IMG/VR virus record: IMGVR_UViG_3300040770_000162
DNA from: a virus
Length of the DNA stretch: 64,000 nt
Direction: 5' to 3' (one strand)
Both the position numbers and the translations under genes were made by a program. A model generated the notes under the pieces. It did not search any database, was not told the DNA's origin, and saw only the letters and a program-made list of their open reading frames with translations. Shown one piece after another: positions 14,076 through 38,638 of the stretch (the stretch's first letter is position 1; each line of letters begins with the position of its first letter).

Positions 14076-17000
14076 ATGATAAACGGAAGAAAAACATACG
14101 ATGATTATTTTAAAGATCGTGATAAAAAAAACGGAACTGTTCAGAATAAACCAAATCCAACATCTGGAATGTTTAGTAGAAATACATCTGGAGTATTAGC
14201 TACTAATACTGATTATGGAAATTCTAAATATGATAAAAATTTAAACTGGGGTGCTGACATAAACCAAAACGATATTAGTGGATCTTTAAATGAATTTAGA
14301 TCTAAAGAACAAGGTATCTGGGATACTGCTGGCGCAGGCTTAGGTAGAATTGGTACTAAAGTAGGTGTTGAACTTGCTAAAACAGGAGCTGCAATTGTAG
14401 GTACACTTGTTGGTTTAGCTGGAAATACTTCAGATTTAATTACAGGTAATGATGATACAGACTTTTTAGAAGTAGCTTTTAATAATGATTTTATTAAAGC
14501 TGCTGAAAAAATACAACAATCTGTAAATGAAGAATTTTTACCAGTATATGTAAGTGATACAGTAACTAATGGAAATTTTTTAGATAAAGTTACAAGTTCT
14601 GAATTTTGGGCAACAGATGGAGCTGATGGTGTAGGGTATTTACTATCTGCTATGGCTCCTGGAGCTGCTTTTAAAGGTCTAGGATTAGGTAACAAAATAT
14701 TTGGTGGTGCTTCAAAATTAACAGCATTGAGATACGGTAAAAATGTTGAAACTGCTAGAAAGTTTTTAACTAAAGCTGGTTTAACAATCGATAAAATTGA
14801 TAGTTTTACAATACCTGCTGTTAATACTTATTTTGAAGCAGGAGCTGAAGCAAAAGGTGCGGGTGATGCAATTGAATCTAGAAAGCCTGAATTTTTAGAT
14901 AATTACAAAATGAATTTTGACCAAAAAAATCCTGAGTTTATTCAAAAAGTTTCTAGTAAAATGGAAGCTTTAGATTTAGATAGACGTTCAGGTGTAATAT
15001 CAGACATAGAATATAATTTGTTAAGTCAAAATATTGGTGAAGAAACAGTTAATGAAATGGCTGAATTTGCATTTAAAGAACAGAAAGGTAGAGCTATGAG
15101 AAATACTTTTCTTACTAATTTAGCTGTATTAGCTGGACCTAATTATATTCAAGCTAAACTACTATATGGTAAAAATCCATCTAAAATAATGTTAGATAAA
15201 ATTACAGGTCAAGCTGTTGAGAAATCTGTTAAGAACACTGCTAAACAAGGATTAAAACGAGTAGGTCAATCATTTTTATCTGAAGGTTCTGAAGAAGTTG
15301 CACAAACATCTACGGAACAAAGAAATGTTAATAACGCTTTAAAAAATAAATTAAGTGAATATGCAATTAATGATATTGACCCGTTTACATTTGGTAAAGA
15401 TTTTATTGAAACATTAAGTACTACAGAAGGTCAAGTTGCTGGGTTTTTAGGAGGTATGTTAGGAGCACCAATATCTATTGTAGGTGGTTATAAACAAGAT
15501 AAAGAAGATAGTGAACGTACAGAAAGATTACGTGCTAAAATTAATGGTCAATCTACTGCGTTAGACGATATTTATAATACTAATCTTTATGAACAAGAAG
15601 AATATGTAAATCCTGAAACTAATGAAACATTATTACGTGATAAAGAAGTTAATGGTAAAAAAGTATTAATACCTGAAAATGTAGCTAAAGTTAAAAAAGC
15701 TTTAGATTTACAAGAAGCTTTATCACAAGTATATGACCAAGCTGTACAAGATGCAGATACTGATATATTAGAATCTCTAAAAAAGCAAGCGGAGTTTAAT
15801 ATTATATCTAATTTTATTGGTGAGGAAGAAGTCACTTTAGATGCTTTAAACGAACATTTAAAAACTATATTTCCAGTAACTGAAAAAATGGAAGATGGTT
15901 CAGAACTATCCCAAGAACAAGTTAAACAAAATACAGAGAATAAAGATAGAATTAGTAATGTAATTACTAAAGCTAAAGTATTACAAAAAGATTTGTTATC
16001 TTTTAAAGATATGTCACAATCTCTTATTAGATTAAATAATAAAAATGCTACACCTAAACAAATTGAAGAATTTTTAAATGGTGTTGGAAATGCATTTTTA
16101 TCTGAAAGAGCTGAAGAATTTGATGTAAAACAAAAGCTAGCTAAACTTGAAAAAGATCGTGCTGAATTAATGAAAGATTTACCTTTGGAAAGTAAAGGAT
16201 TTTTTAAATCAAATTCTCAAACTTTAGAAGATTCTGAAAAATTAGCTAAAGTTAAAGAATCTAAAGTTAATGAAAATGGTTTTGCATTTTTAACTGACAA
16301 TGAAATTTATAAAAATAACCCAAGATTAAATTTTATTAATAAACAGATTGAGACAGCTAAAAATCAATTAGAAGAATATAATAAAACTACTAATGAGTTA
16401 ATTTGGAATAATGAATTTCTTAATAAACAATTTGATGCTAAAATCAAAGAAGATTCTGAAGTTAAAGAAGCGTTAAGTGAAGAAAATGTAGCTAAAAATG
16501 ATGAAGCTATTGTTAAAGTAAAAGAAGCTACTACAGTTGAAGAAGTTGAAGCTATTGAAAAAACTACAAAGAATCCAGTAGTTAAAGAAAGAGCTGCTAT
16601 TAAAAAAGCTGAAATTATTGAAGCTGAAAAATCTAAATCTGAACAAAAAATAGCTACTGCTACACAAGAAGATAATGACTTTAATAATCCAACAAATTAT
16701 GATGATTTAACAAGTACAGAAGGTTCAACTACTTCAGATGAACTTACACCTAAAGATAACGATAATAATTCAACAGAAGAACTTAAAAGTATTCAAAACA
16801 CTGAAGTAGATAATGGTAAGGGTGTTAGAGTAATAAGTACAAATAGTGAAACAGGTGAAAAGTTTAGTTTTGTATCTGAAGAATATTTAAGTTATGAAAG
16901 AAAACCTGTTGATAAAACAGGTAATGAAGTTAAATTTGAAATTAATCAAAATCCTGGTACAAATCCAAAAGTACTTGAAGCATTAGAAGCTTTTAATAAA

Positions 17001-18665
17001 AAAGACTTTTCTAATCCCAAATTATTAATAGATTATTTACCTATTAATATAAAATTTAATAAAGATATTAGTGCTCCAATTGATACACGAAAAATAACTG
17101 GTAAAATTAGTTCTTCTACTGAACTATTAAGAACAGAATTAATTAATAATTTAATTAATGGTGTAGATATTAAAAACATGTTTACAACTATTCAGGGTCA
17201 ATATAAGGGTCTGTTAAAAGTTGATGATAATAGATTAGCTAATAACAATATTCTTCAATTAGACGGTGTTAAAGACTTAAAATATGTCCGTGAAAATTTA
17301 CACGTAGTAAATTCTTTTGGTAAATTACAGAATGTTTTAACTGGTAAAACTTTAGATTTTAACGATGGTAAAGTTAAAGAAAATGCTAAAGGTGAAATTT
17401 ATTTAATGATTCCACAAGCTAACGGCACACCATTTCCTTTAAAGCTAAACATTAAAAAAATTAATGAAGCTGAAGCATCTTTACTTTATTATATTTATAG
17501 AGAAATCATAACTAATGATAAAGCTTTAAATACTACAGTTTCAGAAATTAGTAATGATTTAAAAGAGGCTATACAAACTAGTTTTAAAGCTGAATTAGAT
17601 ATTATTGGTGGTAATAAAAATGATATTAAATTGCAAGAAATTATAGATTTATTAATATATCAATCTGATAATGTTAAATCTAAAATGCAAATTAATAATG
17701 GTGTTTTATATTTTGGTGAAAATGAATCGACAATAGATACTATTGATAACGATATGAATAGTATTATTGAATACTTAGTTAATAGTAAAAGGCATCAAAT
17801 TAAAATTGATAAAAAATTTGATACCGATAATACTAAAACTAATTTAAAATCTAATTCTGCTGATTATCTTAAATATTTAATTGACAATTTAATATTATCT
17901 ACTAATGCTGTTGTTAATGAACCAACATTTCAAGGTTTTACTAATATTTATTTAAATACTAGTGTTGCTGTTTCTAATCAAATTAAAGCTGTTCAAACAA
18001 CTACTATTACTAAAACTAACGAAGAGAAAATTGTTGAATTAAGAGCTGAAGAACAAGTTAAGAAAGCTGAGATTGAAAAAAGAAGAGAAACTTCGTTATT
18101 TGAAGGACGTTCAAGATTACAAAGAGAAAACTTTAATGAATATTTTAATGAAGTAAATTCACAGTACGATGCTGAACAGAAACAACTTTATGATGAATAT
18201 GATAAGTTAATATCACCTTTATTAAATAAAAATACTAAAGTTTCAGAATCAGGGATTGAAGCTAATTCTGATAATTTTGAAGGTTTAGATTTTAATAAAC
18301 AACCTCAAACAACTACTGTTCAATTTCAACCTGTTGTATCAGAACAAGGTGTTGAAGTTAATGTAGAAGATACTGGTTTAAATAGTTTATTTGAAAATAA
18401 TTCAGAAAATGTTAGGAATTCTCAAGAAAGTTTTGTACCTTTGTCAGAAATACAAGGTACTATGGAAAATACAGAGTTAAAAGAAACTCAAACTGAAGTT
18501 TTTAAAGAAGTTACAAATATTCCTTCAGCTACAGAAATGAGATTGTTAAATAAAGCTGCGACTATTTTTAAAAATAATCCTGAAAATTTAACAGATTCTC
18601 AAAGAAAAAGACTTGAAGAAGCTGCGGTAAAATATCCAGAAACGTATAAAAAATTATGTAAATAA
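14076..18665 (+). CDS. giant virion/ejected protein
   Basis: 1529-aa ORF with an N-terminal Gly/Ala hydrophobic segment and long acidic coiled-coil-like stretches. Directly precedes the RNAP gene. Confidence 0.65.
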   Translation: MINGRKTYDDYFKDRDKKNGTVQNKPNPTSGMFSRNTSGVLATNTDYGNSKYDKNLNWGADINQNDISGSLNEFRSKEQGIWDTAGAGLGRIGTKVGVELAKTGAAIVGTLVGLAGNTSDLITGNDDTDFLEVAFNNDFIKAAEKIQQSVNEEFLPVYVSDTVTNGNFLDKVTSSEFWATDGADGVGYLLSAMAPGAAFKGLGLGNKIFGGASKLTALRYGKNVETARKFLTKAGLTIDKIDSFTIPAVNTYFEAGAEAKGAGDAIESRKPEFLDNYKMNFDQKNPEFIQKVSSKMEALDLDRRSGVISDIEYNLLSQNIGEETVNEMAEFAFKEQKGRAMRNTFLTNLAVLAGPNYIQAKLLYGKNPSKIMLDKITGQAVEKSVKNTAKQGLKRVGQSFLSEGSEEVAQTSTEQRNVNNALKNKLSEYAINDIDPFTFGKDFIETLSTTEGQVAGFLGGMLGAPISIVGGYKQDKEDSERTERLRAKINGQSTALDDIYNTNLYEQEEYVNPETNETLLRDKEVNGKKVLIPENVAKVKKALDLQEALSQVYDQAVQDADTDILESLKKQAEFNIISNFIGEEEVTLDALNEHLKTIFPVTEKMEDGSELSQEQVKQNTENKDRISNVITKAKVLQKDLLSFKDMSQSLIRLNNKNATPKQIEEFLNGVGNAFLSERAEEFDVKQKLAKLEKDRAELMKDLPLESKGFFKSNSQTLEDSEKLAKVKESKVNENGFAFLTDNEIYKNNPRLNFINKQIETAKNQLEEYNKTTNELIWNNEFLNKQFDAKIKEDSEVKEALSEENVAKNDEAIVKVKEATTVEEVEAIEKTTKNPVVKERAAIKKAEIIEAEKSKSEQKIATATQEDNDFNNPTNYDDLTSTEGSTTSDELTPKDNDNNSTEELKSIQNTEVDNGKGVRVISTNSETGEKFSFVSEEYLSYERKPVDKTGNEVKFEINQNPGTNPKVLEALEAFNKKDFSNPKLLIDYLPINIKFNKDISAPIDTRKITGKISSSTELLRTELINNLINGVDIKNMFTTIQGQYKGLLKVDDNRLANNNILQLDGVKDLKYVRENLHVVNSFGKLQNVLTGKTLDFNDGKVKENAKGEIYLMIPQANGTPFPLKLNIKKINEAEASLLYYIYREIITNDKALNTTVSEISNDLKEAIQTSFKAELDIIGGNKNDIKLQEIIDLLIYQSDNVKSKMQINNGVLYFGENESTIDTIDNDMNSIIEYLVNSKRHQIKIDKKFDTDNTKTNLKSNSADYLKYLIDNLILSTNAVVNEPTFQGFTNIYLNTSVAVSNQIKAVQTTTITKTNEEKIVELRAEEQVKKAEIEKRRETSLFEGRSRLQRENFNEYFNEVNSQYDAEQKQLYDEYDKLISPLLNKNTKVSESGIEANSDNFEGLDFNKQPQTTTVQFQPVVSEQGVEVNVEDTGLNSLFENNSENVRNSQESFVPLSEIQGTMENTELKETQTEVFKEVTNIPSATEMRLLNKAATIFKNNPENLTDSQRKRLEEAAVKYPETYKKLCK

Positions 18666-18666
18666 T

Positions 18667-21600
18667 ATGAGTAAAGAATGTGGATTTATAGTAAACGGTC
18701 AAAAATCACCGTTATATAATAAAATACTAGAAGGTTATAATGGAAATGAAGAGTTATCAATAATTCTTCATTCCCGTTTAAAAAGTGATGAACAATTTAT
18801 AAACGATTTTGGTGATTGGGTAAATGACTACGGTAAAGAACCTTCACAACAATCTGTAAATTATGAATATCAACCTGGTATTTTAAGAGTTGAAGAAAAT
18901 GGTGAACCTAAACTTTTTAAAAATGAAAAGAATGGTAATTACTATTACATAGACAAAGATTTAAACAAAGTTGAAATTATTGAAAATCAAACGTCTTTAA
19001 GTTCGTTATTTGATAATTCACAAATTGAGAGACTTACTGATGTTTTAGTTTATGATTTTTTTAAAAATAATTTAAATATTAATTTTGAAGAAATAGATTT
19101 AACTGGTAATTATACTTCAATTAGAGATCGTATTACTATTAAATTAAATGAAAGAATTAATACGTTTAATAAAAGTGGTAATGAAAATTTTGAAGTGACT
19201 GCAGAGTTGTTGGAAATTGCATTAGAAGAAAATTTAGATGAGTTAGTTAAAAATGTAACTAATGCTTTAGAATCGTATAAAATTAAATCTTCTAAAGCTT
19301 TTAACGATAATGATGAAGATACTGATTTAGCTGATACTGAAGATAATGAAAATTCTAGAGATGTTAGTTTTGGTAAAGCATCTTTTGAAATGTCAACTAA
19401 AGGTAATGTTTCAGCAAATGTTAAACTAAGATTATCATTAATTACAAATACATCATTTAAAGACACTTTTTTAAATGATAGTACATATCTAACTTTTGAT
19501 GAAGTTTATGCTTCTTTACTACCTTATTTGACTAATCAAGTATCTGTTATTAAAGATGATAAACAAGAAGATAAGTTTGAAATTTATAAATCTATAATTT
19601 TACAACTTCAAAATAAAAAACCTTATTTTGCAGAACTTTATCAATTGTTAAGTCAACCTACAATATCTGAAAATATTAAAAATGAATTTGTTCAAGCTTT
19701 TAGTTTAGACATAAACAACTTTAATACTTCAGAATACAGTTTTGAAGAATCTAAAGATGAAAAAACTTGGACTAAGTTAGAAGATGGTAAAATAGTTAAA
19801 CCATTTGTTAAAAGCTTTAAAACTATGAATATCTCTGAAACTGGTAAAAAAGAGACAGATGTATTTAATGAATGGAATAAAAATTTTAAAGAAAAGTTTG
19901 TAACTGAAGGTAAACAAGGTTTATTAATATCACAGGAAAATAAAGATAAACTATCTTTAGTAAAATCAAATTTAAATAAATTAAAGTATTCAGAACCTGA
20001 TGTAGTTAATAAAATAATTACAGAATTAAGAAACTTGGGTATTGAAACTACTATTAAAGGTTTTAATCACTTTTTAGATGACTTTAAGTTAATTAATAAC
20101 GATAATGAAATATCTAATAAAAAGTTTAATAAATTAATATCTGATTTAAATTATTTAGTAGATAGAATTAATACTAATGTAAATAAGAATTTTAATAGTA
20201 TATTATCAGATCAACCTATAACTAAACAATTAGCTAAAGCCGAATCTTTTTACATATCAGAAGGTTCTGATGCGTCTGTATTTACAGCAGGTAAACAAAA
20301 GTGGGTTTATTCATATCCGTCATATTTATCTAATACTATTAAATCTTGGAAAAAAGATAGAAATATTTTATCAAAACATTATGAAATATCTAAATACAAT
20401 TTAGGTTCAGATTGGATGCAATATTTACTAGCGTTAGGTGACACATATCAAGTTGATGAATTTGAAAGTGATGACGTTCAAGAAGCTTTAAGAATTGAAG
20501 AATCCAAAAAACGTATAGACGCTTTGGATTTATATACATTTAATACTTATCAATTGGAAGGTGATTCTAGAAATGGTAAAGACGGTAAAACAATTTCTAA
20601 AGAAGAATATATTTCTGATACAATTAATAAAGTATTAGGTTTTACTAAAAATGTTCAATCATACTACAGAACTACTACTCCTGCGGATAAAGGTACACAA
20701 TACGAAATAGCAATTGGTAGAAGCATTACAACTAACGCTAGATATGGTGACGGTAACCGTGATATTGTAATTGATGACAAAGCTGTAGATATTGTATTTA
20801 AATATTTTGATGCTGAATATCAACGTATGAAATTTGAACGTGAGTTTAAAAATGATGCTAAAAATGCAGATAAATTAAGAGTTTATTATCATTTAGGTGC
20901 GGGTCACGCTTTTAAATCACAATTGTTTCCAGCATTAAATTATGATAAAATTAAGGATACTTTAAAAGATTCAAATTTAGATTTTAAAGATATTTATAAT
21001 GAAAAAGGTGAAGCATATTTAAGTACTCTTAGAAATTCAATATTTGAAGATGCTATTAAAACTTACATTGTAAATGAACTATCTAATGGTATTCAAGAAA
21101 CTCTAGATAATTTAATTAAGACTAAAATATTTGAAGAAAATAGCGATGGAATTGCAAATAGAGAATTAGATAATGATATATGGAATTCTTATGGTACAAA
21201 TAATGCTTTAAAAGCCTCTGCAGATTTTTATATTAATTCTTTAATATCACATGTTGAATATTCTAAAATGTTTTCAGGTGATATTGCTTACTATAAAAAT
21301 GCAGTAGATTATAAAAAACGTGTACCAGCAACATACACTGATGGTTTATATCAAAGACTTGATGAAGAAAATAAAGATGTAAATATCGCAGTAATTGAAA
21401 GTGTTGAAATAAATGAACCATTTTTACCTGAATTAACAGAATTGTTAGGTGAAGACCTAGCTAATAAATATATTAGTGTAAATGCTGCAGATGCTCAGGC
21501 TTGGATTACACCTGCTAGATGGAAAATTCTAATGTCATCTATTGGAAAATGGAATGATACTTACGAATCAGCTTATCAAAAATTAATTGGTGAAAATACT

Positions 21601-22770
21601 GAACCATTTACAGAAAAAGAATTAAAAGCTGTTGCACCACCTGTAAAAGGAGTTTATTTTCAAACAATAGATGGTGTACCAACATTTCTTAAATATTCAC
21701 AAGCTGTATTAAGTCCTAGATTACGTAAAGGTAATAATCTTGAAAAGATTTATAATAAGATGGTTGCTCAAAATATTGATGAGTTAGTTACGTTTGACGC
21801 AATTAAAGTAGGTTCTAACAAACCGACTAAAATTCACGATGATAATGGTCAACTTTTAGATAATTTTGAATTTACACCGTTTACAATACCTTCTAGTGGT
21901 TGGAAATTACAACAAGATTTACCTGTTAAATTAATGCACGATACTGATGTGGGTTCTCAAATTCAGAAAAACATATTTCAAGGTTTAGCATTTAATTTAG
22001 ATAAAATGTTTGATTTAGATAATAGTGAAGTTGAGGGTAATCAAATAGTAGAAAATATTGCTAACACAATTGGTGAATTATCTAATAGAGGTTATGAATC
22101 ATTATTAAAAGAATTTAATATTGCACCTAACGGAACTATTACAAATGTTGAAGGATTTTATAATTCTATTATTGCAGAATTAAAATCAACAGGTGGTTCT
22201 CAAAATGTAATTGATGCTTTAGAATCAGAAATGAGTATCTACGGTGTTGCTCAAGCTAAAGAAAAACTTGAAAACATATTTAGTTCTATATTTACTAAAA
22301 GAATGCTTAAAATCAAAACTAATGGTGGTTCATTTATTCAAATGAGTAACTTTGGTTTTAATAAAGATGAAGCTAACGAGCAAAATGTAATTTGGAATCC
22401 TAGGTCATTAAAAACTACACATCCACCACAATTCCTTAAAGATGAAAACGGTGAGTTTGTATTATCTGAAAATGGTAAAAAAATTATTAGACCTGGTGGT
22501 ATATTAATATCAGGTAGTTTTATTGCTAAATATATTCCAGATTATGCTACTAAATATACACCAGAACAATTATTTGGTTATACTGATGAAAATGGTAAAT
22601 TTATAGAAGGGGTTATTGATAGAAAGATTCTTGAAAATATTATTGGATATAGAATTCCTAATCAAGGTTTGTCATCTAATGATGCTTTAGAAATAGTAGG
22701 TATTCTTCCTGAAGAAAATGGAGATACTGTTGTAGCTTATACAGGTATTACTACTAAAACTGGCTCTGAT
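18667..22770 (+). CDS. virion RNA polymerase, exon 1 (crAss-like two-barrel RNAP)
   Basis: 1368 codons ending ...TGITTKTGSD. Joining to exon 2 creates DFDID. Size and giant-ORF context match crAss-like virion RNAPs (from memory). Confidence 0.65.
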
Positions 22771-23730
22771 AAAATATCACTGTTTGAGCCAGTATAAAAA
22801 ATAAAAATATTGTTAATTGCTGGAAACTCCTAAAGCTTTGTAAACTACAACGTAATTTGAAAAAATAAACGTGAATGTTAAAAATTACAAAGATGGCGAA
22901 TGGACAATCAGCAGCCGAGTTCCTTTAAAATGGAAAGGGTTCAACGACTAATACTTAACTTAAAGATTCCTATATGGATATCACAATCATACAATGAAAA
23001 CAAAATTTAACAAAGAATCAAGAAATTTGATTATTGGAATGTTATTAGGAGACGGAACAATTTCTAATAATTACGTGTTTAAACTTTCACACGGATACAA
23101 ACAAAAAGAATATTTAGAATGGAAAATAAACCTTCTAAATAAATATGGAATAAAAAATAACGGTTTGAAAGAATATATTTCAACTTGTGGTTATAATTTA
23201 GGTTCTATAGTTTATTATAGTCAAATGAGTGTTATACCATTTATGAAAGTTCTTAGAAGAGTTATTTATAAACCTATTAAAAATTACGCTAATCGTAAAA
23301 TCTTAAATAGATTAAATCCTTTAGGTATTGCGATTTGGTATATGGATGATGGTCATATTAATATTAGAAAAACTGATGATAAAATTCACGGTTTCTATAT
23401 TAAAATAGCTACTTGTTTATATAAAGAACAAAATCAAGTTATTATAGATTACTTTAAAGAAGTTTGGGATATATCTTTTTATCAATTTAAAGAAGGTAAG
23501 CCTGGAAAAAATACTTATTCGCTTTGTTGTGGTACACAAGAAGGTGTTAAGTTTATAGAATTAATTAAACCTTATGTAGAATCTTGTCCGTCGATGATAT
23601 ATAAAATTCAGTATGATTTAAGTCAACGTAAAAATTGCGTTGCGTAGAGATTAAAATCTCGAAACACAATACACTAGAAATAGTGAAGATATAGTCTGAT
23701 CTCATATGAAAGTATGAGTTAACACAAATG
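22771..23730 (+). mobile_element. group I intron (960 nt)
   Basis: Exon 1 ends in U and the intron ends in G. Guide GTTTGAGCC (22782-22790) pairs with exon GGCTCTGAT, with U.G at the splice site. GAAGATATAGTCTGA (23685-23699) resembles the conserved P7/S element. A terminal hairpin CTCATA/TATGAG is present. Splicing restores the reading frame. Confidence 0.75.
22994..23647 (+). CDS. LAGLIDADG homing endonuclease (intron-encoded)
   Basis: Two LAGLIDADG motifs: LIIGMLLGDGTIS and LGIAIWYMDDGHI. Confidence 0.8.
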   Translation: MKTKFNKESRNLIIGMLLGDGTISNNYVFKLSHGYKQKEYLEWKINLLNKYGIKNNGLKEYISTCGYNLGSIVYYSQMSVIPFMKVLRRVIYKPIKNYANRKILNRLNPLGIAIWYMDDGHINIRKTDDKIHGFYIKIATCLYKEQNQVIIDYFKEVWDISFYQFKEGKPGKNTYSLCCGTQEGVKFIELIKPYVESCPSMIYKIQYDLSQRKNCVA

Positions 23731-26037
23731 TTTGATATTGATAAAATGTACATGATGTTTGCATCATACAGATTAGAAAATGATAAATTAATATATGAAA
23801 CTTTTGATAATTCTAAACCTGAATCAGAACAATCTGAGGAAGCTTTACAAAATAGATTAGTAGAATTATATAAATCTGTTTTAATTAACGAAAATGTTAT
23901 TGGTGAAGTAATGACACCTGTAGATTTTACACACGTTAAAGATGATATAATGCATTTTGGTGATAAAACATCTAGTGGTAATTTATCTACATTTGATCCA
24001 TTAAAAGATATTGATACTAAATACGATTTCTTATCAGGTAAAGCAGGTGTAGGTCAACAAGCTAATTCATTAATGGATTATGTGTTAGGTAGTATGGGTA
24101 ATTTAAGTATTACTAATTTTAATGTACCTAAAAGTAATTTAAGATTTGATCAAGAATATTCTGCAAAATTATCTAATGAAGATTTAGAATATTATGCTAA
24201 ACAATTAGATTTAAATCCTAATGAAGTTAAACAATTAGAATTTATTAAAATTGGACATTCTTTATCTGCAATTCTTAACGCATTTGTGGACATCGCTAAA
24301 GATCCATACATTACTAGAGGTAATTGGGTTACAATGACAACTAATACAGGTAATTTATTATTACGTAAAGGTGTACATCCATTTTATGTAAATGCTTTTT
24401 TAGCACAACCTATTATTAAAGAATATGTAGCATTTTCATCACAATATGAAGTTTCTGCGGGTCAAAGTTTAAGTACTGCTGATGAATTTATTAAACAAAG
24501 ATTTGGTAAAGACGTTTATGAAAATAGAAATAATTCTAATATATTTAATGAAAGTTTACAAACATTAAGAAGTGCTAAATTTTTAAGTAATACATCTTCA
24601 CAAATGAATGTATTTGCTACTTTTTTACAATACCAAGCTGCATCTAAAGCGATGAAAAAGAATATTGATGCTTCTAAATTTATGGTGAATGGTGTTGGAG
24701 GTAGTGTAAATTCATTAATAATTTCTAAAAATGCTGTAGATTCTATATTAGATGAAGAAGATAAATACAATCAATTAGAAGATAAAACAGAGTTTAAGAA
24801 AAATATTATATTAGGTTTTAAATCTAAATTTACAAACCCTAATGGTTCTGAAAGTATGTTTAGTAAATATTATAACAATGTTATTTTAAAATCTGAACAA
24901 ATTGTCAAAAGTAACCCTAAATTATTTTTTACAGGAAACAGTGTTATTCAAGAAACCTTTAATGAAATTTCAACTGATGTGAATAATGAACTATTATTAG
25001 ATAATGATTTTGGTAAAGATTTAAACAGAATGTTTTATAGTTATGTTATGTCAGGATTTAATTCTTTAAACATGTCTAGTGTTGAAAGAAAAGAATTGAC
25101 TTTAAAATTTAGTAATGAATTTGAGGCTTTTAAATTAGCAAATAAAGGTAAATATGCTATTATTGACGAACTTAATGTAAAACAAGGTGATAGTTTAGAA
25201 TTTATAGGTTTAAATAATAGAAAGAAATCTAAAGATTACGAAAGAAAGTTAACTAAATCATTTTTAGATTTGTTAAATAATGAAGAAGATTTTACTAACA
25301 AACTTATTAAATATTCTTATTTAACATCTGGATTTAATAATCACACTAGTCAATTTTTTACTATGATACCTACACAATGGTTTAATAGAAATAATATTAA
25401 CAGATATATTATTGACAAGTCTAAAGAATATGATAAATTAAATTTAGAAAATGATGATAACTTTATTGATCAATTTTATTTATCTAACTTAGAAAATACT
25501 AAATTTGTTAGACCTATTTCTCAAAAACAGGTATTACCAAAATCTGGAAGTCTTGAAGGATTTGTAATAAAAAATCCTGGTAAAGTAGGTTATTTTAGAG
25601 TTGGTAAAGATCCACAAGGTATTAATCCTGATACATATTATAAACTTATTGGATATAATAAAGATTATCAAGGTATTTATACTAGATTTATTTACAACAT
25701 TAATGATGAACTAACTCAAATTAAACCACTTAATGTTAAAGATAAAAAAGGTAATAGAATTATTAATTATGATGTAAACGGTATTAACCTTAAACCATTA
25801 ACTGAAACAGCACCTAAACTTGTTGAAAGCATTAATAAAGTTAAATTAGCTAATTTATATTCTAATGTAGTTTATAACAGAAATGTGTTTTACAGAGAAA
25901 ACGTTATTATTAAAAAAGAAGATGATGTTAAGATTATAGAGACACCTAAAGAAATTACAACTGAAACTAAACTTATTGTTGAAGAAAATAATGATTGGAC
26001 TAAAGAAGATAATAATGATACTTGTGTACCATTTTAA
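23731..26037 (+). CDS. virion RNA polymerase, exon 2
   Basis: 768 codons starting FDIDKMY, in frame with exon 1 after splicing. The ORF-track ATG at 23728 is made of the last three intron nucleotides. Confidence 0.65.
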   Translation, partial: FDIDKMYMMFASYRLENDKLIYETFDNSKPESEQSEEALQNRLVELYKSVLINENVIGEVMTPVDFTHVKDDIMHFGDKTSSGNLSTFDPLKDIDTKYDFLSGKAGVGQQANSLMDYVLGSMGNLSITNFNVPKSNLRFDQEYSAKLSNEDLEYYAKQLDLNPNEVKQLEFIKIGHSLSAILNAFVDIAKDPYITRGNWVTMTTNTGNLLLRKGVHPFYVNAFLAQPIIKEYVAFSSQYEVSAGQSLSTADEFIKQRFGKDVYENRNNSNIFNESLQTLRSAKFLSNTSSQMNVFATFLQYQAASKAMKKNIDASKFMVNGVGGSVNSLIISKNAVDSILDEEDKYNQLEDKTEFKKNIILGFKSKFTNPNGSESMFSKYYNNVILKSEQIVKSNPKLFFTGNSVIQETFNEISTDVNNELLLDNDFGKDLNRMFYSYVMSGFNSLNMSSVERKELTLKFSNEFEAFKLANKGKYAIIDELNVKQGDSLEFIGLNNRKKSKDYERKLTKSFLDLLNNEEDFTNKLIKYSYLTSGFNNHTSQFFTMIPTQWFNRNNINRYIIDKSKEYDKLNLENDDNFIDQFYLSNLENTKFVRPISQKQVLPKSGSLEGFVIKNPGKVGYFRVGKDPQGINPDTYYKLIGYNKDYQGIYTRFIYNINDELTQIKPLNVKDKKGNRIINYDVNGINLKPLTETAPKLVESINKVKLANLYSNVVYNRNVFYRENVIIKKEDDVKIIETPKEITTETKLIVEENNDWTKEDNNDTCVPF

Positions 26038-26046: not shown

Positions 26047-29000
26047 ATGAATTGTAAAGATAAAAAGAAATTTAAAACTGCTGAAGCATCAAGTAAAGCC
26101 TCCTTACGTACTAAGGGGGCTATCGATGCTTTTTTAAACATATTAGATGTTAATAAGTTTAATAAACTTAATAAAGAATGGACTGTAGATGCTGTAAAAA
26201 GATTTGATATTACAGGTAAATTGTTTTATAATGAAAACGATAAAGCTGTTGCTAATAAGGAAGCTTTTAAACAAATAGATAACGCTAAAGGTGTTAATTA
26301 TTCTATAAATGAAAATAAGAGTATTTCAAATTCAATTTTTGAAAGTGATAATAAACAAATAATTAAAAGTTTACAAAAATTTGCAAAAGATAAAAAAGTA
26401 AATTTAAATTTTGTTGATTTTAAGGATGAAAAAGGGTTTACAACTTATGGTAGTTATGATAAGAAAACAAACTCTGTAAATTTAAATGAAAACAATATAG
26501 ATTCTTCTACATTTTTACATGAAATATCACATCCATTTGTTACTTATTTAAATTCAAAAAATCCTGAATTATTTAATAAAGTTTATAAAGAAGCTAAAAA
26601 GTTATATCCTGAAATAAGTTCATTTTTAGATATTGAAGCTTACTCAAACATGCCAGAATCTTGGAAACAAGAAGAGTATATTGTTAGAGCAATTGAAAAA
26701 GAATATAAAATTAAAGATTTAAAAGTAAGACGTTCAATATTAAATAAATTTTTAGATTTTATTAAAGAACTGTTTGGTATTGAAAATAATATTAAAATAT
26801 CTGAAGATGCTACAATTAAAGATTTATATCAAATAATTCTTTCTAATAATGTAGTAAAGTTAGATGTTAAAATGACAGATAATATTGCACGAAGAGAACT
26901 TGAAAATATTGAAAATTATTTTGATATTAAAATTAGTAATACAAATGAAAAATTATTAGCATTAAGAGGTAAGTTATCTAATTTTAAAGATAATGTTAAA
27001 ATTGGAGATTTTCAAATTGATAACAGTGTTCTTGAAGAAGTTGGACCTTTAGAATATGAAGTAACTAAAGAAATTTACGATAATCAGTTATTTAATATTA
27101 CAGACGCTATTGATAATTTAGAAACTCAAATTGAAGCTTTAGAATCATTAAAAAAGCAGAATCAAATTCAAATTAGAAAAAATATAAAAGGTTATTATAA
27201 TATTAAACCTGAAATTGATAGAGTAAATTTTAACGATCTTATAGGGTCTAAAAAAAACGAAGTTACTTCTAATGAATCACAAGAAAATAGTGAAACTAAT
27301 TCTAATTTAGATACAAATCAAACAATGTTGTTTGGTACTAAATCATTAAAAGATTCTTTTACATCAACTGAAGTATTACAAAACATTATAAATTCTAATT
27401 TAGATTTATCTGCATCAACTATTAATTTAATTGACAAAGCTACGAAACTTTTAAGAAATTCTAAAACCAGAGTTAAAGTAATTAGTCAAGAACAATTTGA
27501 TAAAATGACTACAAATTCTGAAGGTGAAGGCACTGCAGTAATGGCTTACAATTACGATTTAGGAAGTGTTATTTATATGCCAGAAAGTACATTAAGTAAT
27601 TTTTCAAATCTAGATATTGTTAGTTCATTTTTACACGAAGTTGCTCACGAATTAAGTTTAAAAGCTATTTTAAATCCTGAAACAATGTCTGAAATAGCAT
27701 TTAACGAGTTTATTACAAAAGCTTTTGAGCAATACAAATATTTAGGTAAAGGTTTAAACAATAGTAATAGTTATGGTTTTACAAATATTCAAGAATTTGT
27801 AGCTGAATTATATTCTAATGATAAGTTTCAAAATGAAATTAAAAGTTTAGATAAGAATTTCTGGCAACGATTTATATCTGAACTTAGAAGATTGTTAGGT
27901 TTACCAAAGTCTTTAAGAAACGATAATTTAATTGACAGTATATTATTAATAGAAAAGGTTAATGATTTTATAAATGAAAATGACTCTCAACTTGAAAATT
28001 ATAAATTAGCGGGTTTAAAAAGTAGTAGAATTTTAGCAAAACGTATTGAAGATGATTCTCAATATAGTAGTTTAGAATCTAAAATTGATAACTTTATTGC
28101 TAAAGCTAAAAAAGCTATGCAATCCATTCAAGAACGTACTATTAAATCTAATAGAAAAAAGTCTACTGAATCTAAAGAAGAAAACATTAGACGTAATAAA
28201 GAACTGTTAGATACTTTAACTAAGTATGAAACTTCTCAAAAATGGAAAGCTGTTGTGGGTTATACACAATCTTTTAATAATACAATTAATCAAGTAAATG
28301 ACTTATTAGATAAACTTTTAAATACTAAAAATATTTATGAAGATCAATTAGAAAGTACTATTAAACGTTATAAAGATTATCTATCTGCATATGATTTACT
28401 TCCTGAAATTAAAGAGTTAATGAGTCAAGCAGATTTAAAATTGTTTGAATTAACTGATGAAGAAAAAGAAGATTATCAACAGTTAAAAGATTTTTTATCT
28501 AAAGCTAAAGAAAAACATGATGCTATTGAAAGTAAATTTTTAGCAATTAGTAAAGCTCAGGTATTACAAGATTTTAGTAATCCATTATTCAATACAGAAG
28601 TTGAAACTAAACAACGTGAATTTCTAATTAGAGAATACAATAGTTTATCTGATAAAGGTGGTTTAAGTGTAGAACAATATGTTTCTAAAATGTTAACTAC
28701 TAGAGATAAAGATGATTATGAAGTGGATTTAAAAGCATCTGCTGAAAAAATTCTTAATGATCCATCACAAGATATTAGTGGATTTTCTGCTAAATTAGAC
28801 GACCAGTTAAATACTAAAAGTAAACTTATTCAAGTTGTTAACCAAATGTTAGGTGCATCATTTGACGCTGTTAAAACATTAACAGTTACTAAAATTAAAG
28901 AAATGTCTAAAACTTTTGAAAAATTTATTAAAGAAAAAGGTAATGTTAAATTATCTGTACTTAATAAAAATTTAATTGAAAAAGATAGTGAAGGTAACGT

Positions 29001-31164
29001 TTATTTAAAAGGTAAATACAGTTTAGCATTTAAAGAAGCTTTTGACAACGAATTAAGACCTGTTTTAAACGCTAGGAGAGATTATTATGAGTCTTCTATA
29101 GAATTAGGTCTTGAAGAAGGGGATATTCTCTCTAGTGACAAATATAAAGCTTTTAATTATCAAATTAGTCAATGGTATAAAAAATATACCACTAAAGATT
29201 CAAAACGTAAAACAATACCTAAAGCTGAATATTTAAATAAACCTTTAACTGGTACTGAAAAAGAAATATTAGACGGCTATATTAAAATTAATCAAGACAA
29301 CAATGAAATTGAAGGTTTTGATTCATTAATTACTAATATTGCAGGAGCTGAGTTTCATAAATTACCATCTCAAAGTAAATCTGATTTAGAAAGAGCTTTA
29401 GAAGCTGATTTCAAAGGTATTACTAAAGATAAATGGAATGATTTAACTAAAATTAGAACTGACGATATCGGTATAGATAGTGGTAGTGAAGAAAAGAATA
29501 GTCAAGGTGATATTTTAAGACGTGTTAAAACTGCTTATAGAGGTAAAATAGACGCTAACGAACAATCTTTAGATTTAGAAACAATGTTTAGGAATGAATA
29601 TTGGAATGGTCAAAATGTTAAAGAAAAACTTAGACTTGAACCTAAACTATTAATGATTACTGATATAGCTAAAGATAAAGAATACTATACTGGTAAAAAT
29701 AAAGAAGTTGTTGCTGGTTTAAGCAATACTTATAACAGATTGGTAGGTTTAATGGAACGTAACGTTTATGATGTTATGAGTAAAAGTGGTGGTACATTTG
29801 CAGGTGCAGATATTAATAAAGTAACAAGTGCTTTAAACGGATATGCAGCAGGTTTAGCTATGACATTTAACTTAGCATCAGGTGTTACCAACGTTGCAAA
29901 TGGTTTAACCCAAGTATTAATTGAATCAGTAGGTGGTAATAGATTTAATACTAAAACATTTTTAAAAGCAGAAGCTAGATATACTAAAGAAATGATGAAT
30001 GGTAATTTACTTAAAAATATGAGTAAATCTGTTAAAACTTCTTACTTTAATCAACTTCTTGAAATGTTTGATGTAATGGGTGGTCTCGGTCAAAATGAAC
30101 AGGAAGCCTTACGTAACACTATTCTTAGAAAATTTGGAACTACTAAATCTGGTAATTTTTTAAATGAATCTGGTGAACATGCAATGCACGCAATACTTAC
30201 AGAATCTATATTAGATGGTATTAAAGCAATGGATGTTAATAACAACTACTTAGATAAAGATGGTAATGTAACTACTGAAAATAAAGGTGCTTCGTTAGCA
30301 GACATGTTGTATTTTGATAATAATGGTCAACTGCAAATGAATTCTAAAGTTGCATATTCAGGATTTAATTTAACTACTAAATATCACGAAGGTGGTAAAT
30401 CTCAAATTAATTTATTAATTAAACACAAAGTATTTGATTTATTTGGTGTTTATGATATTAAATATAAAAATGAATTATCTAAAGCTTGGTGGGGTAAATC
30501 TATAATGATGTTTAAAAACTTCTTTATGGGTGCAGCTAATTACAGATATACAGGATTTGCTACATCTTATAAAAAGAAATCCGATTTATCAGAAGACGAT
30601 AAATTTTATAACTCTGCTGAAAAAGAATATATTGAAGGTACATATACAACACTTGTTAGATTTTTAAGAGAAACGGGTGTTCCAAATTTAAAAAGTTTGC
30701 AAACAATGTATATGAACTGGAATAATCTTACAGAGTATGAAAAGTCTAATGTTAAAAAAGCAACTATGGAAATAATGCTAACTGCTGTAATATTACCTTC
30801 AATTGGTTTATTAATGGCTGGTATGGATGATGACGATGATGAAAGCAATTTACTGTGGTTTGCAATGTATGTAAATAGACGTTTAACACGAGAACTTGCA
30901 CAGTTTAGAAATCCAATTGAGGCTTCTAAAATGATTCAAAACCCTGTTGCAGGTATTAGATTTATTCAAAACGGATTAAATTTTATATATGATGTTGCAA
31001 CACCTATTAACTTTGCACCAGTTGAAAATGAATCAATATTTGGATATTTAGATGAAAATTCTAAAGGTGAAAACAAAATGAGTAAACACTTAACTAAACT
31101 TATACCAATTATTCCTCAAATGGGAGTAGATTATAGACAGAGGTTTGGGTTAGAATTTAAATAA
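26047..31164 (+). CDS. giant virion/ejected protein with two zincin-like HExxH modules and C-terminal TM segment
   Basis: 1705-aa ORF. HEISH at 26518-26532 and HEVAH at 27634-27648 sit in similar contexts (SSTFLHE / VSSFLHE). A hydrophobic helix and a DDDDDE run lie near the C-terminus. Confidence 0.6.
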   Translation: MNCKDKKKFKTAEASSKASLRTKGAIDAFLNILDVNKFNKLNKEWTVDAVKRFDITGKLFYNENDKAVANKEAFKQIDNAKGVNYSINENKSISNSIFESDNKQIIKSLQKFAKDKKVNLNFVDFKDEKGFTTYGSYDKKTNSVNLNENNIDSSTFLHEISHPFVTYLNSKNPELFNKVYKEAKKLYPEISSFLDIEAYSNMPESWKQEEYIVRAIEKEYKIKDLKVRRSILNKFLDFIKELFGIENNIKISEDATIKDLYQIILSNNVVKLDVKMTDNIARRELENIENYFDIKISNTNEKLLALRGKLSNFKDNVKIGDFQIDNSVLEEVGPLEYEVTKEIYDNQLFNITDAIDNLETQIEALESLKKQNQIQIRKNIKGYYNIKPEIDRVNFNDLIGSKKNEVTSNESQENSETNSNLDTNQTMLFGTKSLKDSFTSTEVLQNIINSNLDLSASTINLIDKATKLLRNSKTRVKVISQEQFDKMTTNSEGEGTAVMAYNYDLGSVIYMPESTLSNFSNLDIVSSFLHEVAHELSLKAILNPETMSEIAFNEFITKAFEQYKYLGKGLNNSNSYGFTNIQEFVAELYSNDKFQNEIKSLDKNFWQRFISELRRLLGLPKSLRNDNLIDSILLIEKVNDFINENDSQLENYKLAGLKSSRILAKRIEDDSQYSSLESKIDNFIAKAKKAMQSIQERTIKSNRKKSTESKEENIRRNKELLDTLTKYETSQKWKAVVGYTQSFNNTINQVNDLLDKLLNTKNIYEDQLESTIKRYKDYLSAYDLLPEIKELMSQADLKLFELTDEEKEDYQQLKDFLSKAKEKHDAIESKFLAISKAQVLQDFSNPLFNTEVETKQREFLIREYNSLSDKGGLSVEQYVSKMLTTRDKDDYEVDLKASAEKILNDPSQDISGFSAKLDDQLNTKSKLIQVVNQMLGASFDAVKTLTVTKIKEMSKTFEKFIKEKGNVKLSVLNKNLIEKDSEGNVYLKGKYSLAFKEAFDNELRPVLNARRDYYESSIELGLEEGDILSSDKYKAFNYQISQWYKKYTTKDSKRKTIPKAEYLNKPLTGTEKEILDGYIKINQDNNEIEGFDSLITNIAGAEFHKLPSQSKSDLERALEADFKGITKDKWNDLTKIRTDDIGIDSGSEEKNSQGDILRRVKTAYRGKIDANEQSLDLETMFRNEYWNGQNVKEKLRLEPKLLMITDIAKDKEYYTGKNKEVVAGLSNTYNRLVGLMERNVYDVMSKSGGTFAGADINKVTSALNGYAAGLAMTFNLASGVTNVANGLTQVLIESVGGNRFNTKTFLKAEARYTKEMMNGNLLKNMSKSVKTSYFNQLLEMFDVMGGLGQNEQEALRNTILRKFGTTKSGNFLNESGEHAMHAILTESILDGIKAMDVNNNYLDKDGNVTTENKGASLADMLYFDNNGQLQMNSKVAYSGFNLTTKYHEGGKSQINLLIKHKVFDLFGVYDIKYKNELSKAWWGKSIMMFKNFFMGAANYRYTGFATSYKKKSDLSEDDKFYNSAEKEYIEGTYTTLVRFLRETGVPNLKSLQTMYMNWNNLTEYEKSNVKKATMEIMLTAVILPSIGLLMAGMDDDDDESNLLWFAMYVNRRLTRELAQFRNPIEASKMIQNPVAGIRFIQNGLNFIYDVATPINFAPVENESIFGYLDENSKGENKMSKHLTKLIPIIPQMGVDYRQRFGLEFK

Positions 31165-31951: not shown

Positions 31952-32360
31952 TTAATTGTTTTTCTAATTTTAATATTGAACTTTTATGAGATTCTATTTT
32001 TTTCAAAATATTATTTCTAATTTCATTTTTAGATAGAATAATTTCTTCCAGTATAGAAATTTCTTCACCTAATTCTTCATCACATATTGATTGATCTTTT
32101 CTATAGGAAGATCCTCTCACATGATAAGTGTTTCCTAGTATTTCAGACGTATAATCACAATGAACATAGCTTGAATCAACTTTTTCACTATAGTCACCAG
32201 CATCTTTTATACACTCTCCTAATGGGATATGTAATAAATTGTCTTCATATTCTGTAAATTCATATGATTTATCCCAGTCAGGTAAATCTTTAAGAATTTT
32301 AGTTACTAATTCTTTAATTTCATTTTGAGTTAAAACTCTATATTTATATTTTTTACTCAT
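31944..32360 (-). CDS. hypothetical protein
   Basis: 138-aa ORF that overlaps both neighbours by 8 nt. Confidence 0.5.
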   Translation of the reverse strand: MSKKYKYRVLTQNEIKELVTKILKDLPDWDKSYEFTEYEDNLLHIPLGECIKDAGDYSEKVDSSYVHCDYTSEILGNTYHVRGSSYRKDQSICDEELGEEISILEEIILSKNEIRNNILKKIESHKSSILKLEKQLNE

Positions 32361-32690
32361 TTCTTTCTAACATTTTTACATTTATTGCAGGATATGATTT
32401 GTAATTTTCTAATTTAAAATCTTGAATTTCAATATTAGATAATAAATTACTTAAACTACAAGTTTCTAAACCATAAGTTTTAATTCTATAATATTCAGCT
32501 CTATCTTCAATATTTAGTTCACATTTATTATATTTATCAACATCTCTACTTAATTGTTCTTTAACAGCATTTAAACTATTATCATACAAATGAACCTTAT
32601 TTAAGTTACCTTGTATACCTAATGCTTTATAACCAGTTACCTTCTCTAAAATCAACGCTAATGTAGCGTAGGAAGCTATGTTATAAGGTA
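32353..32690 (-). CDS. thyA: thymidylate synthase, exon 2
   Basis: After splicing it reads (L)PYNIASYATLALILEKVTGYK...G..HLYDNS...DFKLENYKSYPAINVKM, the conserved ThyA C-terminal half. Confidence 0.8.
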
Positions 32691-32836
32691 CATTGTGTTT
32701 ATTATTAGACGCAACTCTAATAACCTGTGAGATACACAGCACTATATTACTATAGTGTTCAGACTATATCATCTAAGATCAGCTTTTCCAACACCATAAG
32801 CTTGTGTTGTACTCCTTTCGGATAGTCGTTAGGCAT

Positions 32837-33556
32837 TTATTTATAATTATAATTTATAAACTTTTTATTTGGACTGTTTATTCTAAAACATATAGTAGTA
32901 ACATGGATTCCTAATTGTCTACTAGCTTCAGATAATGAAGAATATTCCATATTTTCAATAATTACAATTTTTGATTGTATACCGTTAAATTTACCTAAAG
33001 AAGATACTCTCATTTTATCTTTAGATTCTTTACTATGTGTTTTATTATAAAATGGATTATTTATTCCAGTTCTATCTTTACATTTATTACACTCAATAGT
33101 ATTACTATTAATTCTATTTCCACATTTACAAAAAGTTTTCCCACCTTTCCAATTAGAATTATTTTCTTTAAATCTTGGAAGTCTTTTTACATTTTGCAAT
33201 CTTTGTGTTGCATTTTTAATTAATTGCTCTCTATTTGGATGATTAGAAATCATATCACCACCAGTTGCTGTTTTTGAAACATTATATAAATCGTTAAAAT
33301 CAAGAAAATCTAAAATTTGTTGCTCTCGTTTAATATAATTAAATGATGTTTCAATGCAAATATATTCAAAATTTTCAAGACCGTGTTTATTAACAGATCT
33401 TTGTAAATGAATACAGTGATGTGTATTATTTTTTAATTCTCGAAAATGTCTCAATTTTCTTTTATGTAAATCTTTTGTAGAACCAATATAAAATTTACCA
33501 TTAATTTTGTTCAGGATTATATAAATATAACCAAATTTTATTATACTATTTTTCAT
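32837..33556 (-). CDS. GIY-YIG homing endonuclease, I-TevI-like architecture (intron-encoded)
   Basis: GYIYIILN...KFYIGST...R...E core, Cys4 linker CKCG...CNKC, a NUMOD3-like helix, and a C-terminal HTH (YSSLSEASRQLGIHVTTI). Confidence 0.8.
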   Translation of the reverse strand: MKNSIIKFGYIYIILNKINGKFYIGSTKDLHKRKLRHFRELKNNTHHCIHLQRSVNKHGLENFEYICIETSFNYIKREQQILDFLDFNDLYNVSKTATGGDMISNHPNREQLIKNATQRLQNVKRLPRFKENNSNWKGGKTFCKCGNRINSNTIECNKCKDRTGINNPFYNKTHSKESKDKMRVSSLGKFNGIQSKIVIIENMEYSSLSEASRQLGIHVTTICFRINSPNKKFINYNYK

Positions 33557-33560
33557 AGTA

Positions 33561-33568
33561 CAAAGATA
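33561..33568 (-). promoter_or_regulatory. -7-box-like TATCTTTG inside the intron, upstream of the endonuclease ORF
   Basis: The minus strand reads GTTTATCTTTGTACTATG. The box ends 4 nt before the ATG, so a transcript from it would be leaderless or nearly so. Confidence 0.3.
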
Positions 33569-33696
33569 AACTAATTATATGGTAATTCCAAATAAATATC
33601 GATTTATTTTATATTTTTTTTAATTATAAAATTTAGCACGGGATTGTCCTCGCAGGATATCCCCCGTTTAACTGATTTTTACTTGGGCAACCTTTC

Positions 33697-38278: not shown

Positions 38279-38638
38279 TTATTTCCACCAAACTAATTTT
38301 ACCCACCATTTATCTTGATAATCTCTTTCTTGCTTTAATAAATCTAAAGTTTTTTCCAACTCTTTCTTTCTATTAATAATTTCAATAAATTTATCACTAT
38401 ATAATAATACAGATTTAGCTACAATTTCTTTAATTTCATTTTCGTAACGACTGTATTCAATATCCATACATCTTCTCCAACTGTGATTTTCAAAAATATA
38501 ATTTTGAATTGTAACAGAAAAATTATTTAAAGTTCTTTCTATTTGTTGAATGTCTATTCTTAAATTAGATTTTTCACATTCTTTTTCAGTTTTATGAAAT
38601 TTATTGTTTTTATCTAAAAATCCACATATTTTTTCCAT
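38279..38638 (-). CDS. hypothetical protein
   Basis: 119-aa ORF. Confidence 0.5.
   Translation of the reverse strand: MEKICGFLDKNNKFHKTEKECEKSNLRIDIQQIERTLNNFSVTIQNYIFENHSWRRCMDIEYSRYENEIKEIVAKSVLLYSDKFIEIINRKKELEKTLDLLKQERDYQDKWWVKLVWWK

Follow-up and report, generated by a model that had tools for sequence, protein, structure and literature searches.

Background

Mobile group I introns lodged in the most conserved part of an essential phage gene are a textbook pattern, exemplified by T4 td, nrdB and nrdD (sunY) and by the SPO1 and Twort-type introns, which belong to subgroup IA2, encode homing endonucleases and lie in active-site codons of essential genes. The intron endonucleases of T4 and SPO1 are GIY-YIG or HNH types, and introns of subgroup IA (IA2 in the classification of Michel and Westhof) carry additional elements, P7.1 and P7.2, between helix P7 and the 3' strand of P3 (P3'). 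Group I introns reportedly also occur in RNA polymerase subunit genes of the jumbo phage AR9, as Lavysh et al. are said to have described in 2016; AR9 is a Bacillus jumbo phage with multisubunit beta/beta'-like enzymes, and it sets a precedent for introns in phage RNA polymerase genes. Here we analyse a viral DNA of 64,000 nucleotides (nt), IMG/VR record IMGVR_UViG_3300040770_000162, referred to throughout as the window, in which positions 22771-23730 are very probably a mobile self-splicing group I intron, IA-like in type, in the gene for the giant virion RNA polymerase of a crAss-like phage (Crassvirales), inserted between the first Asp and the Phe codons of the DFDID motif and belonging to a family confined to that motif.

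Among crAss-like phages, those of the Delta and Zeta groups have been reported to carry group I introns and inteins at high density, the introns being detected through endonuclease domains only (Yutin et al. 2021, Nat Commun, PMC7886860). The legend to Fig. 3 of that paper describes a LAGLIDADG intron drawn in the crAss transcription block, and the authors proposed that Zeta-group disruptions 'within ... the DxDxD motif' may reflect 'yet unknown expression mechanisms' (PMC7886860). The intron and intein report is restated in a 2023 review, and our literature search found no paper giving splice sites, ribozyme structure or staggered sites of crAss polymerase introns. The intron in the window resembles those of Yutin et al. 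in phage order, gene block and endonuclease family and differs in that ribozyme structure, splice sites and insertion sites are absent from that account (PMC7886860), whereas the junction is mapped to the nucleotide here. The window itself, at 26% GC very rich in AT, is related to Cellulophaga phage phi14:2 and does not come from a gut phage of the Delta or Zeta group. Homologous introns of 65-70% identity interrupt the same motif in two phages from related crAss collections, cr131_1 (L002, NC_055902) and cr116_1 (L004, MT774389), in whose records the exons and endonuclease are annotated as three 'hypothetical proteins' and the intron is unannotated.

Set beside the T4, SPO1 and Twort-type introns, the element shares what is predicted to be a self-splicing architecture, with putative additional helices inserted between P7 and P3' (its own subgroup being put no more precisely than IA-like), an open reading frame (ORF) looped from the core, a location where the gene of an essential enzyme is most conserved and a patchy distribution. 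It differs in its host gene, a single-chain two-barrel virion RNA polymerase, in the use by its family of four staggered sites within 9 nt and, relative to the T4 and SPO1 enzymes, in a LAGLIDADG (I-SceI-like) endonuclease.

The interrupted polymerase gene and the intron boundaries

The locus is organised as follows, with the evidence for each feature in brackets.

18667-22770, + strand: exon 1 of the virion RNA polymerase, 1368 codons, ending ...TKTGSD with the first catalytic Asp (ORF list, translation, gp66/6VR4 homology)
22771-23730, + strand: predicted group I intron, 960 nt, phase 0, between the D1 and F codons of DFDID (in-frame join, intron-less alleles, Rfam half-matches, covariation)
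22994-23647, + strand: predicted homing endonuclease ORF, 217 amino acids (aa), double-motif LAGLIDADG, between P7 and P3' (the P7.1/P7.2 region) (Pfam, PHROG, I-SceI alignment)
23731-26037, + strand: exon 2 of the virion RNA polymerase, starting FDIDKMY with the second and third catalytic Asp (join, gp66/6VR4 homology)

In the ORF list the upstream plus-strand frame (18667-22797, 1376 aa) has the C-terminus ...TKTGSDKISLFEPV before its stop, that is TKTGSD and then KISLFEPV, and the downstream plus-strand frame (23728-26037, 769 aa) begins with a Met followed by FDIDKMY; the 217-aa plus-strand frame lies between both polymerase ORFs. Joining T22770 to T23731 takes out 960 nt and produces an in-frame, stop-free coding sequence for 2136 aa that contains TKTGS-DFDID-KMY. 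A preliminary description of the window, made from the letters and an ORF list, had proposed these frames, this join and a 2136-aa product with GS-DFDID-K, and translation reproduces all of them; the U that ends exon 1 (22770) and the G that ends the intron (23730) can likewise be read from the sequence.

The same description took the spliced product for a giant DxDxD-containing crAss-like RNA polymerase, naming phi14:2 gp66 as the example, and suggested aligning the two around DFDID. That alignment supports the assignment. The sole PDB sequence matched by the spliced protein is 6VR4 chain A (phi14:2 gp66; E=1.2e-210), in one alignment domain (query 37-1431) that spans the junction, and blastp against gp66 returns a single high-scoring segment pair, again crossing the junction, between residues 40-1984 and 41-2036 at 29% identity. 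The segment TKTGSDFDIDKMY is identical to gp66 residues 1356-1368, so that DFDID of the spliced protein aligns with gp66 1361-DFDID-1365 (Asp 1361, 1363 and 1365), the published catalytic motif, in which Ala at any one of the three Asp abolishes RNA synthesis (bioRxiv 10.1101/2020.03.07.982082); the same paper is silent on introns. The product thus has what defines a gp66-type polymerase, namely a single chain of at least about 2000 aa, homology along most of its length and a DFDxD motif. By sequence comparison, then, the interrupted gene is identified as that of a crAss-type virion RNA polymerase. The protein of the window would presumably be packaged, packaging in the virion and injection for early transcription being known for phi14:2 only (bioRxiv 10.1101/2020.03.07.982082; tandem mass spectrometry note in the NC_021806 annotation). 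The giant neighbouring ORFs (14076-18665 and 26047-31164) follow the order g067-g066-g065 of phi14:2 and the rest of the window holds crAss-like virion and replication genes, while a megablast of the window against GenBank phages found no close genome.

In ten related IMG/VR contigs (L085-L095), which reach 76-81% aa identity to the window in this region, and in phi14:2, the polymerase gene is uninterrupted exactly at 22770/23731. Because close intron-less relatives read continuously across this point, as ...TCTGAT followed directly by TTTGATATTGAT..., the boundaries are fixed at nucleotide resolution. The joined exons of the window, ...GGCUCUGAU/UUUGAUAUUGAU, align base for base with the empty sites, 58-78 of 90 positions around the junction being identical; intron-less relatives have ...ACTGGTTCTGAT/TTTGATATTGATAAAATGTA... 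and the allele of the L088/L090 type reads GGTTCTGATTTTGATATTGATAAAATGTA. Such empty alleles are the kind of site that a homing endonuclease would use.

These comparisons also bear on whether the locus is an artefact, in which the contig would be a chimera or the endonuclease gene would stand free between two unrelated ORFs, as might be suspected of a window that is possibly metagenomic and has no exact copy in IMG/VR (44-mer search). This reading is effectively refuted: the flanking ORFs together make up a single gp66 homologue whose halves meet to the nucleotide, and the arrangement is repeated on 68 independent contigs as well as in GenBank cr131_1 and cr116_1.

Ribozyme structure

The elements assigned to the predicted ribozyme are listed below in plus-strand order.

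22760-22770, + strand: P1 exon strand CUGGCUCUGAU, with the 5' splice site after U22770 (10/11 pairs; family 97% paired against 61% permuted)
22773-22779, + strand: P10 intron strand AAUAUCA, pairing with exon 2 nt 23733-23739 in P1 register (7 contiguous pairs; 790 of 20,000 shuffles, p about 0.04)
22782-22792, + strand: internal guide sequence, the P1 3' strand GUUUGAGCCAG, in which G22782 pairs with U22770 (sequence, folding, shuffles, covariation)
22808-22813, + strand: P3 5' strand UAUUGU, pairing with 23666-23671 (family 96% paired against 64% permuted)
22818-22913, + strand: P4 (22818-22823 with 22908-22913) around P5 (22828-22830 with 22902-22904) and the P5a stem (22836-22843 with 22885-22892) (Rfam alignment, minimum free energy fold, P4 compensatory pairs)
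22914-22940, + strand: P6 (22914-22916 with 22938-22940) and P6a (22920-22923 with 22932-22935) (Rfam alignment; P6a 98% paired against 54% permuted, P6 96%)
22946-22950, + strand: P7 5' strand GACUA, pairing with 23692-23696, the presumed guanosine-binding helix (invariant and 100% paired in 38; Rfam consensus)
23666-23671, + strand: P3 3' strand ACAAUA, directly 5' of P8 (covariation)
23672-23685, + strand: P8 hairpin CACUA-GAAA-UAGUG (a hairpin here in every relative)
23686-23696, + strand: J8/7 AAGAUA (23686-23691) and P7 3' strand UAGUC (23692-23696) (Rfam match 23684-23716; unique exact match in the window)
23701-23718, + strand: P9 hairpin CUCAUAU-GAAA-GUAUGAG (Rfam alignment; compensatory variants in the alignment of relatives)
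23730, + strand: terminal omega-G at the 3' splice site (join; G-ended in all 68 resolved relatives)

Of the guide GUUUGAGCC (22782-22790), 8 of 9 positions pair with the exon sequence GGCUCUGAU (22762-22770), the pair at the splice site being U22770.G22782, just as first noted, and the pairing extends further to 10 of 11 (22760-22770 with 22782-22792), a value reached by only 26 of 20,000 shuffles in which the first 60 nt of the intron were randomised (p about 1e-3). What had been described as a P7/S-like sequence corresponds to GAAGATATAGTCTGA (23685-23699), which comprises J8/7 and the P7 3' strand and is a nearly perfect fit to the Rfam group I consensus, and the terminal hairpin noted with it is P9. 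Minimum free energy folding recovers P1, P4, P5, P5a and P6/P6a. The Infernal scan proposed in the preliminary description, run with Rfam RF00028 on a local stretch of 1.3 kb, gave two matches, one at 22815-22952 (J3/4, P4, P5, P6, J6/7 and P7; 33.4 bits, E=2e-6) and one at 23684-23716 (J8/7, P7' and P9; 25.2 bits, E=6e-4), which are collinear, both on the plus strand and either side of the ORF.

Placing P3' directly after P7, as in the Rfam alignment, was rejected since covariation puts it after the ORF at 23666-23671. The 715 nt between P7 and P3' then hold the ORF and two hairpins (22964-22981 and 23648-23661). By blastn the core (22800-22950) matches more than 300 phage genomes at 72-82% identity, in stretches that carry no annotation; among them are genomes of Staphylococcus, Bacillus, Enterococcus, Vibrio and Serratia phages.

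In the Flavobacterium phage FPSV-D18 (L003, MW442830) the 5' half of a ribozyme including the P5a extension, at 5990-6300, is 82% identical to 22800-22950, and the two P5a stems differ by compensatory changes (CUUUGUAA/UUACAAAG against CUCUAUAA/UUAUAGAG); its core is followed by a GIY-YIG-like ORF, not a LAGLIDADG one, and the record is unannotated. A search of the window with the P7 and J8/7 motif for further copies of this intron type found none except the motif of a thyA intron described below.

Covariation and the probable need for splicing

A search of IMG/VR with the endonuclease protein returned 139 relatives, 80 of which were fetched. Helix strands were cut out at set distances from invariant anchors, each helix being defined independently of the others, and the fraction of paired positions was compared, across 38 unique sequences, with a control in which strands were permuted between sequences. 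P1 was 0.97 paired (permutation mean 0.61, maximum 0.74), P3 0.96 (mean 0.64, maximum 0.73) and P6a 0.98 (mean 0.54, maximum 0.66), with a U.G pair at the splice site in 38 of 38. P3 occurs for example as UAUUG/CAAUA, UCGUG/CACGA and CUCCU/GGGAG; P4 (0.95 paired) swaps U-A for G-C at one position (30 against 8 sequences), and one position of P6 (0.96 paired) occurs as C-G, U-A and G-C. P7 is invariant and fully paired (1.00) and J8/7 is also invariant, and P8 forms a hairpin in each sequence through about 30 distinct stems.

The P1 guide follows synonymous changes in the exon: GGC UCU in the window is matched by GAGCC, GGU UCG in cr131_1 by CGAACC and GGU AGU in L021 by CUACC, a pattern expected only if the pairing is used. 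Compensatory upkeep of the helices would similarly be expected only if splicing is under selection. Together with the anatomy this covariation bears out the original identification as a group I intron.

In the late transcript the guide (22782-22792) would pair with the 11 nt at the end of exon 1 to form P1 with its U22770.G22782 pair, and an external guanosine bound at P7 would attack after U22770. Exon 2 would be aligned through P10 (22773-22779 with 23733-23739), and attack by the 3'-OH of exon 1 after G23730 would ligate the exons, giving an mRNA translated into a 2136-aa polymerase with its Mg-binding Asp triad intact; the anatomy here is taken from sequence and the chemistry is what it predicts.

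Some points weigh against this interpretation. Neither Rfam half-match reaches the gathering threshold (50 bits) and whole-window scans, also by E-value, returned nothing. Rfam filters are stricter on long input, the half-matches appearing only in the 1.3-kb local scan, and two sub-threshold matches are all that is obtained because the 654-nt ORF and a long P5 extension split the ribozyme model; missing the threshold is a technical shortfall and no evidence against group I membership. P2 is lacking or weak, and P5 in the strict sense has only 3 bp in the window. The designation IA-like is an informal one suggested by the position of the ORF and hairpins and by the blastn similarity of the core to introns in phages of Staphylococcus, Bacillus and Enterococcus. 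Splicing, endonuclease cleavage and virion packaging of the window's protein are inferred throughout, from sequence. Finally, the last three bases of the window's intron are ATG, in frame with exon 2, which makes separate translation of exon 2 formally possible.

This last point favours a split gene in which the intron is a dead relic and two polypeptides, one of 1376 aa ending KISLFEPV and one of 769 aa from the ATG at 23728, assemble non-covalently. AUG also ends the intron in 20 of 51 unique relatives, and RNA polymerase modules are fragmented in some crAss-like lineages (PMC7886860). Such an arrangement would however place the Asp triad on two chains, though each Asp is essential, and exon 2 has no start codon (ATG, GTG or TTG between the preceding stop and the exon) in 26 of the 51, one of them being L007, which is among the relatives nearest to the window and has ACG at the end of its intron. 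A dead relic would also not account for ribozyme helices kept by compensatory changes, P1 with its tracking of synonymous exon changes among them, or for the invariance of P7 and J8/7. With so many relatives lacking an exon 2 start and with selection on P1 and P10, we regard a split gene as very improbable. The self-splicing intron accordingly remains our reading of the locus. The original suggestion that the enzyme cannot be made without splicing has backing: an unspliced message gives the 1376-aa product with the first Asp only, and this and the startless exon 2 of many relatives back the view that splicing of the polymerase transcript is probably needed for the whole enzyme.

The intron-encoded endonuclease

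The preliminary description had noticed a double-motif LAGLIDADG ORF in the intron, and profile searches agree, with Pfam PF03161 (LAGLIDADG_2) matching at 5e-24 (85.5 bits against a cut-off of 25) over positions 2-166 of 168 and PHROG 11023, 'homing endonuclease with LAGLIDADG motif', at 8e-23. The only PDB relatives are entries of I-SceI (1R7M, E=1e-4, 25 bits), aligned over residues 6-210, and the motifs LIIGMLLGDG (D20) and IAIWYMDDG (D119) stand opposite I-SceI D44 and D145, so that both catalytic Asp are kept. I-SceI, from the omega intron of the yeast mitochondrial large-subunit rRNA, is the closest solved structure by sequence and is likewise a monomeric double-motif enzyme of about equal length encoded in a group I intron; it differs in its target and in the phage host of the window's enzyme, and the similarity is weak. 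These features indicate an intact monomeric double-motif enzyme that is predicted to cleave DNA.

Probable mobility and a family at four staggered sites

Down to 52% identity, all relatives of the endonuclease (L005-L074 and L081) lie inside the same DxDxD-coding stretch of 12 nt on contigs of crAss size, while distant relatives (32-39% identity) lie in other genes. Calling junctions by coding logic alone was dropped as it left several solutions per locus. The rules used instead were restoration of G-S/G/A/T-D-x-D-x-D, a U before the intron and a G at its end, with candidates then ranked by P1 pairing, and 68 loci were resolved in this way; at least 68 IMG/VR contigs of crAss type carry this intron and endonuclease family. 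They fall at four codon boundaries.

After D1 (the window's site, also that of cr131_1): 21 loci
After D1-x: 24 loci
After D2 (the site of cr116_1): 22 loci
After D2-x: 1 locus

Each of the 68 introns is in phase 0, follows a U and has G as its last base, and most have a P1 of their own of 6-13 contiguous pairs, P10 in the relatives typically having 4-10 pairs. The four boundaries are thus staggered by 3 nt, within 9 nt, each with a matching guide sequence. The preliminary description had framed the element as a single case; the element is real and is a member of a large family, of a kind already noted for crAss-like phages (PMC7886860).

The sequences are indicative of recent movement. Between L010 and L011 the introns are 93% and the flanking exons 56-57% identical, and between the window and L005 the intron is 88% and the exons are 77% and 57% identical. 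Under the proposed mechanism the I-SceI-type endonuclease, encoded in a peripheral loop between P7 and P3', would during co-infection most likely cut intron-less alleles at the conserved DxDxD-coding DNA, and repair of the cut allele would copy the intron in (homing), with the guide sequence and the 3' terminus re-matched to each of the four sites. The earlier proposal that the endonuclease targets the most conserved codons of the gene is supported by the distribution of its relatives over the same 12 nt and by the empty sites in close relatives; cleavage itself is a prediction.

It could be instead that splicing is intact while the endonuclease is inactive or kept as a maturase, inheritance now being vertical only. 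LAGLIDADG proteins do act as maturases in organelles, and endonuclease cleavage is deduced from sequence here; the label used by Yutin et al. is 'endonuclease maturase' (PMC7886860). Against vertical inheritance stand the full length of the ORF relative to I-SceI with both catalytic Asp intact and the patchy presence and absence of the intron among polymerases of 71-81% identity, and introns that are 88-93% identical while their flanking exons are only 54-57% identical require recent horizontal transfer. We therefore consider a purely vertical intron improbable, if somewhat less so than a split gene, and keep to a mobile one.

Near-identical cores occur at different sites among L010-L017 and L036-L045. 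An example is the comparison of L011 (after D2) with L012 (after D1), in which core and endonuclease gene are 95-100% identical, the first and last 60 nt only 68% and 61% and the host exons about 54%, which points to retargeting in which the P1-P2 and P9 ends were exchanged. As a tentative extension, which we find possible without leaning towards it, one lineage may be a dedicated DxDxD parasite that has been repeatedly retargeted among the four boundaries by swapping its termini, keeping core and endonuclease. If true, such a lineage would explain at least part of the Zeta-group DxDxD disruptions ascribed to 'yet unknown expression mechanisms'. Several loci of the second site are on contigs of 140-180 kb, the size range reported for Zeta-group crAss phages.

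In a number of relatives (L023, L025, L026, L029, L030, L033, L035, L047 and others) the polymerase ORFs and sometimes the endonuclease ORF are fragmented when translated with the standard code, as would fit the reassignment of stop codons known from Delta/Zeta crAss-like phages, and the junction logic still works there.

Other elements in the window

A second candidate group I intron lies in the thymidylate synthase gene (window 32353-34429, - strand), as an intron of 1006 nt (33696 to 32691) with an endonuclease ORF at 32837-33556 (- strand). The Pfam PF00303 profile is split, with positions 2-175 in ORF 33695-34429 (-) and 176-264 in ORF 32353-32742 (-), and joining 33697 to 32690 gives a ThyA of 356 aa reading ...QRSVDTFLG/LPYNIASYA across the junction. 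There is a U before the intron and a G at its end, a P1 of CUUGGGU/GCCCAAG and a J8/7-P7' motif, GATGATATAGTC, at 32772-32762. Its endonuclease is I-TevI-like (GIY-YIG, I-TevI zinc finger and NUMOD3), reminiscent of the T4 td intron; Rfam found nothing at this intron even at E<=1, and blastn against phages gave short matches only, mostly in the endonuclease, which leaves a relationship to T4 td unconfirmed.

ORF 9363-10121 (+ strand, 252 aa) is homing-endonuclease-like (NUMOD3; PHROG 314, 'homing endonuclease'). Its start overlaps the stop of the virion structural gene 5323-9366 (1347 aa) by 4 nt. As the PHROG profile of that gene is matched through to its end, the endonuclease looks free-standing and not intron-encoded. 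A possible second split gene at the helicase ORF 38640-39725 (-) was rejected, ORF 38279-38638 filling the gap and Rfam finding nothing. The window also contains class I ribonucleotide reductase genes (40856-43452) and, at 47224-53412 (-), a cluster of amidoligase, glutamine amidotransferase, COOH-NH2 ligase and RimK-like (S6 glutaminyl transferase) genes adjoining an RNA ligase (54115-55113). A search of the window for tRNA genes found none.

Implications

The kind of intron described here is already known, so the modest novelty lies in a well-supported member, in the detail of ribozyme and junction and in the staggered, apparently retargeted sites; an intron in the polymerase gene does not overturn current understanding. 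For annotation it provides a splice rule for the correct reconstruction of crAss polymerases, in which exon 1 ends with the U paired to the guide G and exon 2 begins with the base next after the terminal G. The endonucleases are candidate rare-cutting enzymes for a sequence common to many abundant gut and marine phages.

For the biology of these phages, production of an essential injected enzyme would depend on RNA splicing late in infection, and the intron family marks the most constrained DNA of the polymerase. The four staggered sites with their re-matched guides form a compact natural data set on retargeting and, if retargeting proves general, would offer a natural system for intron site change, be it through recombination of competing introns with one another or through reverse splicing.

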